Positions 815 to 24,422 of a stretch of 27,075 nt of DNA are shown here, one piece after another (within the stretch, counting starts at the first letter, position 1; each line of letters opens with the position of its first letter). The notes beneath the pieces are model-generated. The model was not told where the DNA came from and searched no databases. It worked only from the letters and a program-made list of their open reading frames with translations. Origin of the DNA: Candidatus Jordarchaeales archaeon (GTDB lineage: Archaea; Asgardarchaeota; Jordiarchaeia; Jordiarchaeales; Freyrarchaeaceae); assembly GCA_038858525.1 (NCBI GenBank), contig JAWCFL010000024.1:1-27075 (forward strand). The letters run 5' to 3'. The translations under genes and the position numbers were made by a program.

Positions 815-1747
815 CTAATCTCTTTTCTTCCTTTTAATGTGCCTTGACGCGTTTATAGCTGCCATGGCTCCTTCTCCCGCCGCAGTTACGACTTGCATTC
901 CACCACACGTGCAGTCTCCAGCTGCAAAGACCCCCTCGATGTTTGTTCTTTGCCAACGGTCAACTTTAACGCAGCCTTTCTCGTCAACTTCTACGCCTGC
1001 TTTTTTTACCAGCTCACTCGTAGGCACTCCGCCGAGAGAAATGAAAACGCCGTCAGCAGGGAGAACGTCTTCTCTTCCATCTTCGTATATTATTTTGACG
1101 TGTTCAACGCTATCTTTCCCACCTATCTCTGTAACACGTGCCTCGATCACTTTTACACCCTTACTCCTAATTCTCCGTATTAAGTCTTCGGCAGCTTCAA
1201 GAGGCGCGCCATGAGTTACCAGTACAACTTCACCCGCCAAGTCAGTTAAGAAGAGGGCGTCGGCCGCTGCCTCCTCGCCAGAGCCAACTACTATTACTCT
1301 AAGTCCTTTGAAGAACGCGCCGTCACATACGGGGCAGTAGCTTACTCCCCGCCCTAAAAACTCGGACTCTCCAGGTATTCTGATCTTACGTCTCTGGGTT
1401 CCAGTAGCAATTATCACGGCCATAGACAGGTAGCTACCCTTCCTGGTTGTGACCTTTTTAAGTGGACCCTTCAGGTCTAGGTCTATGGCCTCTTCGAATG
1501 TTCTTATCTCGGCGCCAAACTTTGAGCATTGCTTAACCATTCTTTCCACGAGCTCAACGCCAGCTATGCCTTCAGGGAAACCAGGATAGTTCTCTATGAA
1601 GGGGGCTTCTCCTGCTCTTCCACCCGGGATGCCGCTCTCCAAGATGAGAGTCCTTAAGCCGAGCCTAGAAGAATATATTCCAGCCGTTAGCCCAGCTGGA
1701 CCAGCACCCAATATGACCAAGTCGTATACTTGTTCCTCTTGGCTCAA
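815..1747 (-). CDS. trxB: Thioredoxin-disulfide reductase
   Basis: GAGPAG FAD motif, GRGVSYCPVCDG CxxC, GSGEEA NADPH-site variant, GVFAAGD; TTG start. Confidence 0.95.
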   Translation of the reverse strand: MSQEEQVYDLVILGAGPAGLTAGIYSSRLGLRTLILESGIPGGRAGEAPFIENYPGFPEGIAGVELVERMVKQCSKFGAEIRTFEEAIDLDLKGPLKKVTTRKGSYLSMAVIIATGTQRRKIRIPGESEFLGRGVSYCPVCDGAFFKGLRVIVVGSGEEAAADALFLTDLAGEVVLVTHGAPLEAAEDLIRRIRSKGVKVIEARVTEIGGKDSVEHVKIIYEDGREDVLPADGVFISLGGVPTSELVKKAGVEVDEKGCVKVDRWQRTNIEGVFAAGDCTCGGMQVVTAAGEGAMAAINASRHIKRKKRD

Positions 1748-1935: not shown

Positions 1936-2862
1936 ATGGTGGTAGAAGTGAAAGTGGCGAACGACATTACAGAGCTTATAGGTGGAACTCCGATTGTTAA
2001 GTTAAGGAGGGTTGTGGAGCCCGGCTCAGCCACAGTTTACGCCAAACTGGAATGGTACAACATAGGTGGGTCTGTGAAGGACAGGATGGCTTACTACATT
2101 TTGAAGCACGCTGAGGCTGCAGGGAAACTTAGCAAGGACAAAGTAATACTTGAGGCCACCTCCGGTAACACAGGCATATCCCTAGCTATGTTGGCCGCGG
2201 CGAAAGGGTATAGAGTAGCGATAGTTATGCCTGAGTCCGTAAGCGAGGAAAGGCGGAAGATAATTAAGGCTTTTGGTGCCGACCTTATTCTTTCACCCGG
2301 AGAGAAGGGAACAGGAGGCGCCATAGAGTTAAAGCAAAGGTTACTAATGGAGAACCCTGACATTTACGTTGACATAGACCAATTCCGTGACCCAGCAAAT
2401 ATCCTGGCGCATTATGAAACGACAGGGAAGGAGATAATTGAGCAAACACAAGGGAAAGTAGATATGGTCGTTGTTGGCGTGGGAACAGCCGGGACAGGTG
2501 TTGGAACGTCAATGCGGCTTAAGGAATATAACTCAGAGATAAAAGTGGTTGGAGTTGTTCCTAAGCTCGGCGTGAGCATTCAGGGACTCAGAAATCCTAA
2601 TGAGCCGTATCCGACTCAGCTTTTCAGAAGAGAATGGTTCGATGAAATAGTGGAAATTCCGAAGGAACTGGTACCTGAAACGTTTGATGTCGCTAGAAAA
2701 ATAGCGAGAATGGAGGGGTTGCTGATAGGAATGAGCGCTGCAGCAATAATGTACGTCGCCCTGAAAAAGGCAAAGGAGCTTGGTCGGGGAAAAACCATAG
2801 TGGCAGTATTGCCAGATAACGGGCTAAAGTACCTTAGTACACCACTTTACAATTCACAGTAA
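1936..2862 (+). CDS. cysK: PLP-dependent cysteine synthase (CysK/CysM family; possibly O-phosphoserine sulfhydrylase)
   Basis: GGSVKDR PLP lysine, EATSGNTG, GVGTAGT, GMSAAA; SIQGLR segment resembles CysM-type enzymes. Confidence 0.92.
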   Translation: MVVEVKVANDITELIGGTPIVKLRRVVEPGSATVYAKLEWYNIGGSVKDRMAYYILKHAEAAGKLSKDKVILEATSGNTGISLAMLAAAKGYRVAIVMPESVSEERRKIIKAFGADLILSPGEKGTGGAIELKQRLLMENPDIYVDIDQFRDPANILAHYETTGKEIIEQTQGKVDMVVVGVGTAGTGVGTSMRLKEYNSEIKVVGVVPKLGVSIQGLRNPNEPYPTQLFRREWFDEIVEIPKELVPETFDVARKIARMEGLLIGMSAAAIMYVALKKAKELGRGKTIVAVLPDNGLKYLSTPLYNSQ

Positions 2863-3637: not shown

Positions 3638-4435
3638 ATGACAGCTGAGGAATATGGGGAGCTCGATGAGGCGATAATTACAAGAGCAATTATTGAGAGC
3701 TCCGCTAGGATGCTAGTTGATGCTTCAAATACGGACGTCGTAGTAGTTGGAGCTGGACCAGCGGGACTTACAGCGGCGAGATACCTCGCTAAGTCCGGCC
3801 TAAGAACAGTTGTTTTCGAGAGAAAACTCTCCTTTGGAGGCGGTCTAGGTGGAGGAGGGATGCTCTTCCCCAAAATTGTGATCCAGAAGCCGGCAGACGA
3901 AATTTTAAGGGATGTTGGCTGCCCACTTGAAAAATTCGACGAGAAGCTCTTTCTAGCAGATGCCGCAACGGTAATGGCGAAGCTAGCTGTCGGAGCTGTA
4001 GACGCCGGCGCAAGAATAATTTTCGGCGTCACGGTGGACGACGTGATATTCAGAAAGGGAGAGAGGGAGGCGAAGATAGTAGGAGTCGTAGTTCAGTGGA
4101 CTGCCGTAATAATGTCCGGGATACACGTTGACCCGCTGAGCATTAGAAGCCGAGCGGTTGTTGACGCAACTGGTCACGACGCTGAGATACTTACAATTGC
4201 CTCGAGAAAGATTCCAGAACTTGGACTAACTGTTCAAGGCGAAAAATCCATGTGGGCTGAGGAGGCAGAAAGACTGACTGTTGAAAAAACAGGAAGAGTT
4301 TGCCCTGGGCTATACGCCGCCGGGATGGCTGTTGCAGCGCTACACCAAACGCCACGCATGGGACCTATTTTTGGCGGAATGCTACTGAGTGGGCGAAAAG
4401 TTGCGGAAATCATACTTAAAGACCTTCAAAGATGA
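3638..4435 (+). CDS. thi4: Sulfide-dependent adenosine diphosphate thiazole synthase (non-Cys Thi4)
   Basis: [24 protein letters not shown] (His at the suicide-Cys position), [21 protein letters not shown]. Confidence 0.95.
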
Positions 4436-4526: not shown

Positions 4527-5357
4527 ATGCCTTTAAGGCTTGTTTTCCCTGTGAGTCTTATGCTTCAGCCGAGTGTAAAGGTTAAGGTTAAAAAAGTCGA
4601 CCTTTTTAGAGGTAAGATTGATACCGTTGATGACTGGGTATCGGTAGAGACGGCCGTGGTACTGTACATTAACGGAGAGCGTGCGACCACTTTCCTGTCG
4701 CTTCCATCACAGCTAAAGGAGCTTTGCGTTGGATGGCTACTGACTCAGTCCATAGTAGACTCAGTTGATGATATTGAAAGCGTGCAGGTTGAAAATGGGA
4801 AGGTAAGGGTTCGTTGTAGTAAAAACATTAAAGCTCGACTGAAAGCTTTAGGGCCACCAGTAGTTACAGATTCAGCATGCGGCTCTGAAAACACTTCGTA
4901 CTTTTATCTTATAGACAGGATCACGAAGCCCTTTGTAGATTCGAAATACAGAGTCAAAGCAGAAGATTTATCGTCATTCATGAAGGTTCTTAATGAGAAA
5001 GCTCAGCTTTTCAAGCTTACAGGAGGCACCCACTCTGCTGCGTTGTTTAGCAACGGGGAGCTTGTGGCGTTCGCTGAAGACGTTGGGCGACATAACACAG
5101 TTGACAAAGTAGTGGGTTCCGCCGCGCTAAATAAAGCAGACTTCTCCAGCTCAGTTCTAGTAAGTACAGGCAGGCAACCAGCAAGCATGGTTATGAAGGC
5201 TGCGCGCGTCGGTATTCCAATAATAGCATCCATTTCAGCTCCCCTATACTCAGGAATAATTGCAGCGGAGCAAGCCGGAGTAACATTAGTATGCTTCGTG
5301 CGGGGAAAACGGATGAACATCTACACTCACCATGAAAGAATAACAGGAGTTTTTTGA
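4527..5357 (+). CDS. fdhD: Formate dehydrogenase accessory sulfurtransferase
   Basis: DSACG Cys motif, TGGTHSAA, EDVGRHNTVDKVVG, STGR, SAP. True start may lie a few codons downstream. Confidence 0.93.
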   Translation: MPLRLVFPVSLMLQPSVKVKVKKVDLFRGKIDTVDDWVSVETAVVLYINGERATTFLSLPSQLKELCVGWLLTQSIVDSVDDIESVQVENGKVRVRCSKNIKARLKALGPPVVTDSACGSENTSYFYLIDRITKPFVDSKYRVKAEDLSSFMKVLNEKAQLFKLTGGTHSAALFSNGELVAFAEDVGRHNTVDKVVGSAALNKADFSSSVLVSTGRQPASMVMKAARVGIPIIASISAPLYSGIIAAEQAGVTLVCFVRGKRMNIYTHHERITGVF

Positions 5358-5583
5358 GCCATCTAAACTTGAAGATATTCTTAAACTTAGAGAAGGCGAT
5401 TTTCAAACTAAGTTTTTAAACCATGATGGGCGCCTATGCCCTGAAGATGGCCTCTTTGGCTAAATAGTGACAGGGAACTTCTATCACTAGCAGGAAAATA
5501 GAATAGAAGTAAGATGTACTGGGGAGAAAAGGGGCGAGTTGAAGTGTGGAAAAGAAGAAGTGTTTCCCTTTAATGATGGCAAG

Positions 5584-5853
5584 TTATTCCAAGATTTTTT
5601 TAAGTGTTTTTTCCACTTCTTTTCTGTCTCCGGCGTTTTTGAATATTACTCGGCCCGTCTTGTAAACCTTTAAAGTTTTTCCGTTGTAACTCACGTCGAA
5701 CATTATTCCTGATAGAGAGTTTAAGACCTCGCCGCGCTCAATTATTTTGTTTATAGCTTCGTTCCTTTTGGCATGTTTGAAGGTGACTATGAAGTCTCTT
5801 CCTTCCCCGCAAGCTTCCTCTATGCTGGCGACGTACTCTTCTATCTCTGGCGT
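5584..5853 (-). CDS. 89-aa protein absent from the ORF track, apparent ACG start; resembles the small alpha/beta domain at the N-terminus of COG4871 proteins and C-terminus of some ThiF/MoeB proteins
   Basis: Hand translation: (M)PEIEEYVASIEEACGEGRDFIVTFKHAKRNEAINKIIERGEVLNSLSGIMFDVSYNGKTLKVYKTGRVIFKNAGDRKEVEKTLKKILE*; GGAGGGG SD 5 nt before ACG; overlaps the sufS end by 13 nt. Confidence 0.75.
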   Translation of the reverse strand, partial: TPEIEEYVASIEEACGEGRDFIVTFKHAKRNEAINKIIERGEVLNSLSGIMFDVSYNGKTLKVYKTGRVIFKNAGDRKEVEKTLKKILE

Positions 5854-7103
5854 TTTAACCCCTCCGATACCTCCCTCAGAACCTCAACAAAACGGTCTAC
5901 TTCTTCCCGAGTATTATAAACGTAGAAGCTCGCTCTAACAGACGACTTCAGCCCTAAGTGCTGGTGTAGTGGTTGGGCGCAGTGGAAGCCGCTTCGAACC
6001 ATTATTCCGAACTGGTCTAGTAGGAGCGCTAGGTCATGTGAGTCTAGACCATCCATGTTGAAAGGTATTATTCCGCACCTATCTATTTCCCTTCCTGGAC
6101 CATAAGTCTTTAAAGTGCTCACTTCCCTAAGCTTGTCTAGAGCGTAGATGGTTAAGTTCCTCTCGTGCTCGTGCACGTTTTCCATACCTAGTCGCTTCAA
6201 GTATCTCACCGCCTCCATGAGACCGACGGCGCCACAAACATTTGGTGTTCCGGCTTCAAACTTCCAAGGCAGTTCGTTCCACGAAATCCTTAGTCTCCCT
6301 TCGTTATGAGTGTAGGTGACCTCTTTTATCATGTCACCCCCAAAAAGAAATGGTTCTCCTCCCTCTAATAGCTCACGCTTAGCGTAAAGGACGCCTATCC
6401 CCGTTGGTCCAAGCATTTTGTGGCCGGAGAACGCCAGGAAATCCACGTCTAGTTTTTTGACGTCCACTGGCATATGAGGAACAGACTGGGCTCCGTCTAC
6501 GAGGAGTAGTGCGCCATGTTCGTGTGCGAGTTTTGAGATTTTCTCTATATCGTTGATTACACCTGTAACGTTTGAAGCATGTGTCACACAAACAAAGCGT
6601 GTCTTTCCAGTTACAAGTTGCTCTAGACTTTCGTAGTTTAGAGTGCCGTCGTAATTAACACCCGCATACTTAACCTTGAACTTCTTTATTCTTGAGAGAG
6701 ATTCCCATGGAACAAGGTTGCTGTGGTGCTCCATCAGCGTGACAACCACTTCGTCTTCAGGGTTCAGTTTTAACCCCCAAGAGTAGGCTACGAGATTTAT
6801 CGCTTCGGTGGCGTTTTTCACGAAGACTACTTCCTCGTAGCTCTCAGCGTTTATGAAGCTTGCTACTTCTTTATGTGCTTCCTCGTAGAGCTCGGTTGCC
6901 TCTTGGGATAACGTGTGAACAGCCCTGTGAATGTTGGCGTTGCTTTTCTCATAAAACTCTCTCATCGCTTCTATCACGCTTATCGGCTTCTGCGACGTCG
7001 CTGCATTATCGAAGTAAACTAGGGGGTAACCATTCACAGTCCTCTTAAGTATGGGAAAGTCTTCCCTGACCCTGTAAGGGTCAAGCAACGCTACTACCCC
7101 CAA
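5841..7103 (-). CDS. sufS: Cysteine desulfurase, SufS (group II) type
   Basis: YFDNAATSQKP, MEHHSN, DGAQS, SGHKMLGPTG, EAGTPN, RSGFHCAQP, SVRASF: all catalytic residues present. Confidence 0.95.
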   Translation of the reverse strand: MGVVALLDPYRVREDFPILKRTVNGYPLVYFDNAATSQKPISVIEAMREFYEKSNANIHRAVHTLSQEATELYEEAHKEVASFINAESYEEVVFVKNATEAINLVAYSWGLKLNPEDEVVVTLMEHHSNLVPWESLSRIKKFKVKYAGVNYDGTLNYESLEQLVTGKTRFVCVTHASNVTGVINDIEKISKLAHEHGALLLVDGAQSVPHMPVDVKKLDVDFLAFSGHKMLGPTGIGVLYAKRELLEGGEPFLFGGDMIKEVTYTHNEGRLRISWNELPWKFEAGTPNVCGAVGLMEAVRYLKRLGMENVHEHERNLTIYALDKLREVSTLKTYGPGREIDRCGIIPFNMDGLDSHDLALLLDQFGIMVRSGFHCAQPLHQHLGLKSSVRASFYVYNTREEVDRFVEVLREVSEGLKRQR

Positions 7104-7584
7104 TTCTCTTAGCGAGCCTCTTCGCCAACTCTTCTTCCTCTAAAGCCTGTCTCTCCTCGAAAGTTATATCCTTTGGAAGCCAGTCAGGTGTCTTCCCTTT
7201 TCTTTTGTAATATTCTCTTATGGCTCTCCTCATCGCGCCAACAGCTAATACGCCGCAGTGAAACTTAACCGAGGGCAGGCCACCAACCTCCTCTGAAACT
7301 TGCTTCCAAGAGATCTCCCATGCTTCTTTCAGCGTCTTACCTTTCACCATTTCTGTCAGGATGCTCGAAGTGGCTATGTTAGCGGCGCACCCATAGCTCT
7401 CAAAGCTAGCCCGCTCTATAACTTCGTTTTCACTCACCTTAAGGTAGAAAGTTATCATGTCACCGCATGCAGGGTTACCTGCAACTGCCCAAGCATCGGC
7501 ATCCTCCATTCTGCCGAGGTTTTTCGGGTTCCTGAAAAGATCCAAGATCTTCGGGCTATAAGGAAGCGGAGCCCTAGACAACAA
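7081..7584 (-). CDS. iscU: Fe-S cluster scaffold IscU/NifU-like
   Basis: GNPACGDMI, YGCAANIATSS, KFHCGVLA (three Cys plus Asp); charged C-terminal extension. Confidence 0.92.
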   Translation of the reverse strand: MLSRAPLPYSPKILDLFRNPKNLGRMEDADAWAVAGNPACGDMITFYLKVSENEVIERASFESYGCAANIATSSILTEMVKGKTLKEAWEISWKQVSEEVGGLPSVKFHCGVLAVGAMRRAIREYYKRKGKTPDWLPKDITFEERQALEEEELAKRLAKRIGGSSVA

Positions 7585-8802
7585 TTATCCCCCCATACTC
7601 CCATATATCATTCTAAGTCTAGATACAGCTTCCCGTATGGATTGGAGGACGTACTCGATGTCCTCGTCTGTATGGTAGCGTGTAACCTTCATCAGGATGC
7701 TTCCATGCGCCTCCTCAAATCTTCTTCCAATGGCGAGCAGCACGTGGCTTGGCTGAAGAATACGTCTCGTGCAAGCACTTCCACTCGAAACATAAACCCC
7801 TCTTAAACTAAGCTCGACGGTCAATGATTCGCCTTCACACTTAAGGAAGCTAACGTTAACGTTATCCGGCGCCCTCCTATCCCCTAATGGCCCATTAAGA
7901 ATAGTTCCATCTAAGCCGTTCAGTATTCCACTTATAAGTTTGTCTCTGAGACGCGCCATGTGCGCAACGTTCCCATCAAAGTTGCTGAAGGCTTTCTCTG
8001 ACGCGGCGGCGAAACCGACAATTAATGGAGTATTTTCGACGCCGGGCCACAGTTTCTGCGTTCCAAACTGCCCCTCCAGTATCTTCTCGAGGGAGACGCC
8101 ACCCTTAACGTATAGGGCGCCAATTCCTCTTGGACCCAGAATCTTGTAGCTGCTTATTGTTGCAAGGTCAACGTCGAGGCGGCCCACATCAAACCTTACT
8201 CTTCCGTAGGCGTCAGAAGCATCCGTGTGGAAAATGGCTTCGGGGCTCTTGTCCTTCACTATCTCGACGGCCTCTCTAAGCGGCTCAATGGTTCCTATCT
8301 CGTTGTTTACAGCCATAAAGCTAGCCAAAATCACTTCGCGGTCAGCGAGCTCCTTTAGCCTCTCAAGGTTAATGAAACCTTCTTCATCGACGGGAACATT
8401 CACAGTTGTGAAACCATAATTTTCCAGCATACGGCAGACGTGAAGGATGCTTAGCGGCTCAACCTCTGACACAAGTATCTTTCGTCCCTTCTCCTTACGT
8501 CTAAGCGCGGCACCTATTAGAGCCAGGTTGTTCGCTTCAGTCTCACCCGGAGTGAAGTTTATCTCTTCTGGCTCCTTAGAGCCGATAAAGCTGGCGATTT
8601 TTTCAGCAGATTTCGATATCGCCTCGTACGCCTCCCAGCCCGGCTTATGCGTCAGCGTCGGGTTCCCATAAGCAACTCTGTTGAAGTATGGAAGCATCAC
8701 TTCAAGGATCTCGCCGGGTACGGGGCTGGAATTCTCGAAATCCAAGTAAACTTCCCTTTTCAGCTCGCCATGCGCTTTAATTAGCTCCTCGACATCTCCC
8801 AA
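7585..8802 (-). CDS. iscS: IscS/NifS-like (group I) protein with a degenerate PLP/substrate site
   Basis: Family scaffold clear (GNP, TEANN, VNNEIG, YKILGP, SSGSACT, PSHVL), but several active-site residues are substituted (see findings). Confidence 0.85.
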   Translation of the reverse strand: MGDVEELIKAHGELKREVYLDFENSSPVPGEILEVMLPYFNRVAYGNPTLTHKPGWEAYEAISKSAEKIASFIGSKEPEEINFTPGETEANNLALIGAALRRKEKGRKILVSEVEPLSILHVCRMLENYGFTTVNVPVDEEGFINLERLKELADREVILASFMAVNNEIGTIEPLREAVEIVKDKSPEAIFHTDASDAYGRVRFDVGRLDVDLATISSYKILGPRGIGALYVKGGVSLEKILEGQFGTQKLWPGVENTPLIVGFAAASEKAFSNFDGNVAHMARLRDKLISGILNGLDGTILNGPLGDRRAPDNVNVSFLKCEGESLTVELSLRGVYVSSGSACTRRILQPSHVLLAIGRRFEEAHGSILMKVTRYHTDEDIEYVLQSIREAVSRLRMIYGSMGG

Positions 8803-12153: not shown

Positions 12154-12840
12154 GTGTTTTTGGGAAGGTATATTAGGATAATTTGTCCCATTATGACGGT
12201 GAGGGATGCTATAATGTATGTTGTTCCTAGGTCTGTTCGGGCTTCGCTTATCGGGGTTTTCACTGCTGCGGCTGTAGCTGGCACCTTTGCTCTTTCGCCT
12301 CTGCCTAACGTCGAAATTATCACGTTTTGCGCTTTTGTTGCTGGCTTTCTTTTTGGTAGTAGGGTCGGCGGCATGGTAGGCGCCCTGTCAATGTTTCTTT
12401 TTAGCGCTATTTCGCCTTATGGCTCAGGTTTAGGTTACCCTTTCCTGCTCCTTACTCAAGTCGTCGGGATGTCCATTGCCGGCTTAGTTGGAGGCTCACT
12501 CAGAAAAGTGCTCAGAAACCTCAAGTCGACTTCCCCCTGGTCCATGTATGTCTTTGGCGTGTCTGGAATCGCAGTCACTCTACTATATGACGCCATCACG
12601 ACTTTGGGTTTCATGTATCCCATGATTCCTTTCTCTGAGTTTCCCTCGGTTTTCGCTGCTGGAATTCCCTTTACCGTTGTCCACGTGGCGAGCAACGCTG
12701 TTCTCCTTGGCGTCGTGGCGCCATTCGTTGCGAGGTCTATTAGGTCAATGCTTGGAGAAGTTGAGGTTGAGTCTCACATCGCGGAAAAAAGGCTTCATGA
12801 AGTTGAAGGGGAGGATGCCGCCGAGACACGGCATGTGTAG
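12154..12840 (+). CDS. ECF transporter S component (CbrT-like, probably corrinoid)
   Basis: About 6 TM helices, LPNVEIITF motif, GIPFTVVHVASN; next to a DUF4430 gene; start uncertain. Confidence 0.75.
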   Translation: MFLGRYIRIICPIMTVRDAIMYVVPRSVRASLIGVFTAAAVAGTFALSPLPNVEIITFCAFVAGFLFGSRVGGMVGALSMFLFSAISPYGSGLGYPFLLLTQVVGMSIAGLVGGSLRKVLRNLKSTSPWSMYVFGVSGIAVTLLYDAITTLGFMYPMIPFSEFPSVFAAGIPFTVVHVASNAVLLGVVAPFVARSIRSMLGEVEVESHIAEKRLHEVEGEDAAETRHV

Positions 12841-12879
12841 GTTTTCCAAGCACATTACTCCTGCGGTGCCGTCTCTTAA

Positions 12880-12899
12880 TTGTTCCAGGCTGTCGAAAA
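12880..12899. repeat. TSD TTGTTC plus TIR at the tnpB 3' end
   Basis: TTGTTC|CAGGCTGTCGAAAA read directly. Confidence 0.9.
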
Positions 12900-13020
12900 A
12901 TTTGACTTCCTCTCTCAGCTCTGCTGGGTTCACCTCATCGGCATATAAGCCTTGACACCCCAGCTTCATTACGCTCACAGAGAGGCTTTCGGCGGAGCCT
13001 GAACCTCGCCACATCTTGAG
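12886..13020 (-). ncRNA. Putative omega-RNA scaffold overlapping the tnpB 3' end
   Basis: Position is as established for TnpB omegaRNAs; stems AGGCT/AGCCT, GGC-TTATAT-GCC, CAGC-AGA-GCTG; boundaries inferred. Confidence 0.5.
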
Positions 13021-13755
13021 CATGTTTAAACAAGCATTTATGTCCCTGTCTAAACCGCATTTTGGGCAGGTTTTCTCCATTGGAGCTATTTTTCCTCCGC
13101 ATCTGGAGCATATGCTGGAAGTTTTATGGGGGTTAAAATAAACCACATCAAAGCCATTCAACTTGTGCTTGTAATCAAGTAAGAATTGAAGTTTCCTGAA
13201 GCTCCATGTGTTCAGCCTTCGCTTGAGGTTCTTATTTCTTAAAGAGACTGGTTGGATTCTCTTACTAAACTTGTTGAACTTCTTAACCTTATAGTTTATG
13301 GCCTTCCTTATGTTCCTCAAGTCCTCCATGACGAGCGTTTTGCCTTTCGTTATCTCTGAAAGCCATTTTGTCAATTTGTGGAGCAAATCATGGACTCTGC
13401 GTTTTCTCCTCCCGGAATATTTAGCATAGAGGACCTTCTTAATCTTTGAATCCCCAATCCTTTGAATCCTTCTAAGCTTCCTTGAATAGGCTTCATGGAT
13501 TGCCCTAAGCTTGGAGGTATCTATCTTCCAGCAATTTCCAGAAGAATCAACCACTGTCACACTACACTCGTTAACATCTACAATACACTCATCTGGTCTC
13601 GTCAGATCGATCTCCTGTTTAAATGGAACTATTACCCAATTCATTCATTACAATCTCGCCTATCCTAAGCTTTCCCTCCCTCCAAAGCTTAATGAACTTC
13701 TCCTGGTAGCTCCCGAACTTCAAAGGGATTGTCAGGAACTCCCTTGGCTTGGCTG

Positions 13756-23837: not shown

Positions 23838-24422
23838 ATGTCAAATAAAAATACGGGCGGCAAAGGGTCATTTATCAATTTGCTGATCCCTCCAAGAGTG
23901 AGGGAAGTCAAGATAACAGAAGTTCTTCCCTGCCTCGCCGCCGAAGACAGGATACGAGTCGTGGGCAACACGGGTGAGAAACTAAGCGACCTCTTGCCAG
24001 TCATGTACCTCTATCTTCCCCAAGCAACGTATAGCAGGGAGTCGGACTCCGTGAGCTTTATGTTCGAAGAGCACCTCATCACTGTTTTTGGTGAGGGAAA
24101 AATAACAGCCACAAACCTGAAGGATAAGGATGAAGCTATACGCACTTTAAACTATGTTAAAGATCTGCTGAACAGGGCAGCGATCTACGTGAACCGGCAT
24201 GGAGTACCATCCCTCGAACTCATGAGTAGCAAGCCCAAAGTCAACCCAATCGAAATCAACAAATCCTTACCAAAAAAGGACTGCGGAGAGTGTGGCGTAT
24301 CTACATGCTATGGCTTCGCTGTAAAGCTCGCGCTCGGAGAATGCAAGCCAAGCATGTGCCCCTATCTCGACGCAAACAGCCAAAAAGAGCTACAAAAGAA
24401 AATACATTTCATTCAAATATAA
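23838..24422 (+). CDS. Fe-S-binding protein (COG4871-like; C-terminal CxxCxxxxC..CP domain)
   Basis: LPKKDCGECGVSTCYGFA..CKPSMCPYL; N-terminal PCLAAEDRIR..ITVFGEGKI domain. Confidence 0.82.
   Translation: MSNKNTGGKGSFINLLIPPRVREVKITEVLPCLAAEDRIRVVGNTGEKLSDLLPVMYLYLPQATYSRESDSVSFMFEEHLITVFGEGKITATNLKDKDEAIRTLNYVKDLLNRAAIYVNRHGVPSLELMSSKPKVNPIEINKSLPKKDCGECGVSTCYGFAVKLALGECKPSMCPYLDANSQKELQKKIHFIQI

Follow-up and report, generated by a model that had tools for sequence, protein, structure and literature searches.

A putative ACG-initiated cistron encoding a single-cysteine protein at the end of a sufS operon in Candidatus Jordarchaeales

The window analyzed here is a stretch of 27,075 nucleotides from a Candidatus Jordarchaeales archaeon (assembly GCA_038858525.1, contig JAWCFL010000024.1, positions 1 to 27,075), and its minus strand carries a four-gene Fe-S operon. 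The first gene (7585 to 8802, minus strand) encodes an atypical IscS-like protein with 65% identity to a Bathyarchaeia protein whose gene also neighbors a homolog of the cistron described below; the two proteins have the unusual motifs ENSS and SSYK in common. It is followed by a gene for an IscU-type scaffold (NifU_N; 7081 to 7584, minus strand) with three Cys residues and a His-Cys, and by sufS (5841 to 7103, minus strand; 420 codons), which encodes a SufS-type cysteine desulfurase matching Pfam Aminotran_5 over its full length (E value = 2.5e-148). In an alignment of 24 sequences, its H228-K229 and H374-C375-A376, which hold the PLP Lys and the catalytic Cys, are invariant, and from the SGFHCA motif we take it to be a group II cysteine desulfurase. 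The last gene, here called X (5584 to 5853, minus strand), overlaps the 3' end of sufS. Genes related to sulfur and cofactors abound in the neighborhood of X, including those for a thioredoxin-reductase-like flavoprotein (815 to 1747, minus strand), a CysK-like PALP enzyme (1936 to 2862, plus strand), Thi4 (3638 to 4435, plus strand), and the sulfurtransferase FdhD (4527 to 5357, plus strand). Elsewhere in the window lies a TnpB/Cas12f-like open reading frame with OrfB_IS605 and TNB domains (12745 to 13644, minus strand).

Gene X comprises 89 codons and a TAA stop (5584 to 5586). Its frame is open from position 5883, 10 codons ahead of an ACG codon at 5851 to 5853, and between the upstream stop (5886 to 5884) and codon 51 there is no in-frame ATG, GTG, or TTG; Met51 (5701 to 5703) is the first canonical start. 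The start region reads GGAGGGG, then TTAAA, then ACG, with the Shine-Dalgarno (SD) sequence GGAGGGG (5859 to 5865) lying within the last sufS codons (TCG GAG GGG). Based on SD spacing, conservation, and independent contigs, we propose the ACG as a near-cognate start. The sufS stop TAG is at 5843 to 5841, giving a 13-nt overlap with X, which is read at -1 relative to sufS; codon 4 of X (ATA) overlaps this stop as ATAG (5841 to 5844) and forms an alternative point for reinitiation. The product has a single Cys, encoded by codon 15 (5809 to 5811) within the motif IEEACGEG. A first-pass annotation of this DNA had described an 89-residue frame devoid of ATG, GTG, and TTG until codon 51, preceded by GGAGGGG 5 nt before ACG, overlapping sufS by 13 nt, and specifying one Cys (EEACGEG) and an LKVYKTGRVIF..DRKEVEKTL pattern, and on rereading the sequence every one of these details is correct.

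The X frame is not a chance open reading frame, because its codon-usage score is 0.36, compared with a median of 0.27 for SD-led genes with canonical starts in the same genome, and because it has orthologs under purifying selection in four further species. A six-frame search placed these orthologs downstream of sufS in three species of the same genus, with 69 to 77% identity, and, with 51% identity, in another genus of the family. We refer to the Jordarchaeum species as the window species, L002, L003, and L004 and to the representative of the sister genus as L005; all belong to the Jordarchaeaceae (Asgard). Synonymous sites are near saturation among the orthologs (pS = 0.6 to 0.99), with pN at 0.07 to 0.32, and the ratio of the two, where computable, is 0.06 to 0.12. 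The homologs and the purifying selection (dN/dS of about 0.1) bear out the earlier description of X as a hidden gene that closes the Fe-S operon.

The same comparison addresses whether X might be a decaying pseudogene or might yield only a 39-aa product from Met51, a group of explanations, extending to a sequencing error at position 5852, that we consider extremely improbable. Databases do contain the Met51 fragment alone, and the ESM Atlas holds X only from residue 51 onward (39 aa), which means that current annotation misses the gene. However, codons 6 to 50 taken by themselves show pN/pS of 0.12 to 0.34 at a pS of 0.57 to 0.96 and are thus as constrained as the remainder, and the invariant Cys lies upstream of Met51. 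This constraint on the half preceding Met51 excludes both the 39-aa product and the pseudogene.

Judged by its sequence, X is a member of an unnamed archaeal protein family. A profile search of 1.84 billion representatives retrieved 117 clusters, nearly all of them stand-alone proteins of 85 to 95 residues without a Pfam family, in whose alignments Cys15 and Gly67 are invariant; Cys15 is also kept in all 109 further loci that we surveyed. Seven family representatives (P0046, P0052, P0061, P0062, P0071, P0074, and P0083) have only 47 to 71 residues and begin at profile positions 19 to 44, and these, too, may have been truncated by gene callers that could not find a canonical start. The window stretch itself was found in hot-spring metagenomes from several studies. 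The operon order iscS-like/iscU/sufS/X occurs in this window and in most Bathyarchaeia, a second operon type reads iscS-like/iscU/X, and other Asgard genomes have the order X/iscS/iscU; ThiS, MoaE, and rhodanese genes are close to X in some loci. Among 98 junctions of X with SufS or IscU genes, 26 are -4 overlaps and 32 are -1 overlaps (58 of 98 together).

The start of X differs between the wider family and the Jordarchaeaceae. Our tblastn-based survey covered 29 loci from genomes and 80 from metagenomes, which are of the Bathyarchaeia type except for one from Jordarchaeum and two of the L005 type. At 107 of the 109, a canonical start (ATG at 67, TTG at 22, and GTG at 18) occupies the aligned place, 9 to 22 codons before the Cys, and the two noncanonical loci are copies of the second Jordarchaeaceae genus. 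The Met starts of homologs fall in alignment columns 1 to 6, aligned with the ACG region. In the window, L003, L004, and L005, no in-frame ATG, GTG, or TTG precedes the conserved block of X, and L002 has a GTG two codons past its ACG. All four Jordarchaeum species have the ACG, and in L005 the sole near-cognate codon is an ATA at a spacing of 9 from a G-rich SD, which in that genome follows the sufS stop and lies in noncoding DNA. A single transition separates either codon, ACG or ATA, from the ATG of distant homologs, and we propose that an ancestral ATG may have changed to ACG in Jordarchaeum and to ATA in the sister genus. The earlier alternative of an ATG-to-ACG mutation is therefore apt as history but not as a lesion, given that the ACG state is conserved.

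Sequence context also points to the ACG. The 3' end of the 16S rRNA of this genome is ..GGAUCACCUCCU, and among 335 long frames with GGAGG upstream of the first canonical start, the most frequent distance between GGAGG and the start is 7 nt (105 frames), followed by 8 nt (56 frames) and 9 nt (50 frames); the ACG of X lies exactly 7 nt past GGAGG. In sufS, the ACG straddles a Lys-Arg codon pair as AAA-CGN, an encoding used for just 12.7% of K-R pairs genome-wide. Since the ACG overlaps sufS codons, part of its conservation could stem from SufS. The free third base of that Arg codon varies across the four Jordarchaeum species (C/T/G/C), and the sufS codons that build the SD (TCG-GAG-GGR) have a joint frequency of 4% yet are kept in all four. 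Jordarchaeum sufS runs 5 to 8 codons (..SEGLKR..) beyond the stop of the sister genus (..KEIA, then stop), and through this extension the SD and start of X were turned into sufS coding sequence.

Independent DNA contigs from two other studies span positions 5300 to 5999 and leave 5851 to 5853 unchanged. A sequencing error or strain artifact at 5852, which had been raised alongside the first reading, is thus refuted by these contigs and by the same ACG in three other species, just as the selection before Met51 refutes the pseudogene and the 39-aa product. A 334-nt metatranscriptome contig from one RNA library bridges the end of sufS and the start of X and keeps the ACG; RNA editing of ACG to AUG is accordingly unsupported, though as evidence this single contig is weak (depth of 2.8, with DNA carry-over possible). 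With the ACG conserved in four species, placed at the modal SD spacing, and identical in independent assemblies, it is most probably a true noncanonical start of X, as the first-pass annotation had suggested, and examination of relatives for an ATG at this place adds that ATG, GTG, or TTG is usual in the wider family while the Jordarchaeum species keep ACG.

We think it probable, taking the explanation as a whole, that X is a real last cistron with an SD-led ACG start and a product linked to SufS/IscU. Ribosomes would bind the GGAGGGG inside the last sufS codons and initiate 7 nt past GGAGG at the ACG, presumably with initiator Met-tRNA, to give a predicted N terminus of (M or T)PEIEEYVASIEEACGEGR. 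We infer that initiation would use Met and that expression would be reduced, an SD-led near-cognate start probably yielding less product than ATG.

The main rival for the start mechanism is termination-reinitiation, in which a ribosome ending sufS would restart at the codon that overlaps the stop (ATA in ATAG here, and GTG in GTGA in L002), so that the N terminus would be 3 residues shorter (predicted MEEYVASIEE..). This is plausible for the window and for L002, and it could act along with the SD. It gains from the dominance of -4 and -1 overlaps at the junctions of the wider family and from the classical GTGA overlap in L002, L025, and L067; translational coupling needs such overlaps (PMC10666635). 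However, the stop-overlapping codons are GTA (GTAA) in L003 and TTA (TTAG) in L004, each two changes from ATG, and across these two species the ACG is the sole shared candidate. The sufS stop of L005 precedes the sole near-cognate codon by 15 nt, and in the window an SD at the modal spacing points to the ACG. On balance, we consider reinitiation an unlikely account of the start.

Even less likely, in our judgment, is a programmed -1 frameshift toward the end of sufS, near GGGG or UUA-AAA-C, which would produce a SufS-X fusion (predicted trans-frame ..VSEGVKTPEIEEY..) and leave X without a start of its own. Relative to sufS, X is indeed in the -1 frame, and that frame is open for 6 to 27 codons ahead of the ACG across species, and there are a G-run and an A-run at the end of sufS. 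But no X XXY YYZ heptamer is present, UUA AAA is UUG AAA in L004, and in L004 the X frame opens just 6 codons before the ACG. A different recoding event would be needed in L005, where X shares the frame of the sufS TGA. The downstream RNA offers no stable or covarying structure (z = -0.64, with 0 compensatory pairs), no fused SufS-X homologs were found among longer proteins (weak evidence), and the other family members are all stand-alone genes with their own start.

The SD-led near-cognate start proposed for X may not be confined to this gene. We scanned the genome for coding-like frames with an SD and without a canonical start within 25 codons and obtained 23 sites, of which 10 have near-cognate codons (three ACG, two ATA, two AAG, and one each of ATT, CTG, and AGG), compared with a background of 9.3% at equivalent non-SD positions (Fisher P value = 2e-5, with one gene contributing two adjacent codons). 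ACG as such is not enriched genome-wide at SD+7 to SD+9 (7 of 336), so it is a tolerated, gene-specific exception of a few genes and not a new or general code. Across the genome, the SD-led first starts of long frames are TTG (137), ATG (126), and GTG (72), in that order.

Pfam-confirmed proteins among the near-cognate sites are Ogg, an AIR-carboxylase/LarB-like protein, an HdrA N terminus, and an RNase III-like protein. The gene for Ogg (8-oxoguanine glycosylase, Ogg-HhH; G000:C1:70863, L060:61-687), which lies outside the window, has no canonical start; three Jordarchaeum species have an SD and ACG, and the fourth has ATG at the same codon. In the LarB/AIR-carboxylase-like gene (G000:C2:90493, L058), the codon is ATA in four species and ATT in a fifth from another genus. 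The HdrA N-terminus gene (G000:C4:88462, L057) keeps ATT in four species, and its frame runs on through a TGA that is probably Sec. The RNase III-like gene (G000:C1:37700, L061) has AAG, AAG, ATA, and ACG at one position, right after a stop and an SD. These patterns suggest that conserved SD-led near-cognate starts at several genes are tolerated in the Jordarchaeum lineage.

The AlphaFold model of X (pLDDT = 89.5) begins with a beta-hairpin (residues 8 to 14 and 20 to 25) with Cys15 at its turn, followed by a helix, four strands, and a helix. The only Pfam match is DUF3378 (PF11858), at an E value of 0.063 and 13.9 bits against a cutoff of 27, and NCBIfam TBP models match 6 of 12 members of the X family, with a best E value of 8e-4 and all below the family cutoffs. 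Structural comparison with VIA aligns X with Sulfolobus TBP (1mp9_B) over 78 residues (Z = 6.7, rmsd = 2.8), which is under the tool's safe Z of 8, and Foldseek matches it to the N-terminal domain of RNase HIII at a probability of 0.92 to 0.93 but an E value of about 0.1. The model thus suggests a TBP-like half fold for X, a protein of 86 to 93 residues, with structural scores that are modest. In the ESM Atlas, the fold recurs in hypothetical Bathyarchaeota proteins (TM = 0.95 and 0.89), and X-like domains occur within ThiF-family proteins and PF04060 Fe-S proteins (TM of about 0.65). One PF04060 protein (194 aa) is encoded in the window itself (23838 to 24422, plus strand); its C terminus carries the PF04060 "putative Fe-S cluster" motif, and the X profile aligns weakly with its N-terminal part (hhalign E value = 3.5e-4 over 31 columns). 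This second match to the X profile in the window (24057 to 24152) had been considered as a TBP and turned out to be the PF04060 protein.

No SufE (PF02657) was found anywhere in this 92.7%-complete genome, so the earlier remark that the window lacks one holds for the genome as well. The TusA homolog is a separate gene elsewhere in the genome (C16); X itself has neither a PF01206 (TusA) match nor a CPxP motif, having ..EEACGEG.. instead, and no family model relates it to SufE, TusA, or SufU. Given the near-universal translational coupling with SufS/IscU and the absence of SufE, X most likely works with SufS/IscU. Predicted complexes of a SufS dimer with X scored 0.32 (runs of 0.42, 0.23, and 0.32), compared with 0.00 for three controls, and were graded as weak support: in calibration, 58 complexes out of 80 solved ones reached the mark, as did 2 of 110 mismatched pairs, but just 7 of the 80 solved complexes and both of these mismatched pairs reached it at 0.60 or under. 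At least 85% of contacts agree among the runs, with a partner pLDDT of at least 80. The chance that X serves SufS/IscU as a sulfur acceptor, relay, or modulator is, in our view, about even. The earlier idea that X replaces SufE as a persulfide acceptor or Fe-S accessory thus fits the invariant Cys, the coupling, and the missing SufE, but it finds no kinship with SufE, TusA, or SufU and only a weak predicted complex.

An alternative reading, rather unlikely in our estimation, keeps the same translation mechanism and has X, as a small TBP-like protein that binds nucleic acid or is linked to Fe-S, regulate the operon instead of carrying sulfur. The resemblance to TBP and the RNase HIII N-terminal domain speaks for it, the TBP-like fold being better known for nucleic-acid binding, as do X-like domains fused to PF04060 Fe-S modules (one of them within the window) and a lone Cys that is unable to hold a cluster by itself but could sense persulfide. 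On the other hand, the surroundings of the Cys are acidic (IEEACGEE), ThiF-family sulfur-transfer enzymes can also end in an X-like domain, and -4/-1 coupling with SufS is typical of complex subunits; overlapping coupled archaeal gene pairs show a pattern tied to such subunits (PMC10666635). We speculate, tentatively, that X may instead be a third type of dedicated SufS sulfur acceptor, with a TBP-like half fold and a distribution over Bathyarchaeia and some Asgard, whose dose in Jordarchaeaceae would be set by a lineage-wide, eukaryote-like tolerance of near-cognate codons (ACG, AUA, AUU, and AAG) behind strong SDs.

As such an acceptor, X would resemble SufE/CsdE and SufU (the acceptors of type II desulfurases) and TusA (the acceptor of IscS) in being small, in having one essential-looking Cys and a gene beside and cotranslated with a desulfurase, and in occurring in a genome without SufE. 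Unlike them, it shows no sequence or fold kinship with this group, its predicted half fold being TBP-like and unlike that of IscU or TusA; its operon also encodes an IscU-type scaffold. With the TBP repeat and the RNase HIII N-terminal domain (DUF3378), X in its predicted structure appears to share the beta-alpha-beta4-alpha topology, and it has the ..YxTGK.. turn and weak sequence matches in common with them, whereas it consists of a single repeat, forms no saddle, and bears its Cys on an additional N-terminal hairpin.

Non-AUG initiation is known from eukaryotic and viral ACG starts and from the AUU of bacterial infC. The proposed start of X is similar in that its codon is one base off AUG where homologs have AUG, has a strong context, is conserved, and would presumably be read by initiator tRNA at reduced efficiency. 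It differs in belonging to an Asgard archaeon, in being an internal, SD-led cistron start inside the preceding gene, and in that the habit recurs at several genes. Our search of the literature on archaeal ACG starts and on near-cognate starts with aIF1 returned nothing establishing such starts in archaea; in ribosome profiling of Haloferax, about 30% near-cognate alternative sites were set aside (PMC7261190). Compared with archaeal coupled pairs joined by ATGA or TAATG (PMC10666635), most X-family genes likewise have 4 nt or 1 nt in common with SufS or IscU, but the Jordarchaeum sufS frame continues for 7 to 13 nt beyond the point where X starts, and the start within this overlap is not an NTG codon.

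Standard gene finders take only ATG, GTG, and TTG, and as a result X was missed and a 39-aa fragment was left on record. The same callers would truncate the Ogg, LarB-like, HdrA, and RNase III-like genes, which affects metabolic reconstructions from Asgard MAGs. Conserved, interchangeable ACG, ATA, ATT, and AAG starts in close relatives of eukaryotes would offer a testable case for the stringency of start selection by aIF1/aIF2. With an invariant Cys, and with genes welded to those of SufS/IscU at no fewer than 100 loci, the X family offers a concrete candidate for a role that seems vacant in archaeal SufS systems without SufE, that of sulfur acceptor or regulator. The near-cognate pattern in an Asgard lineage and an unnamed family coupled to SufS are, in our view, of greater interest than a single odd codon.
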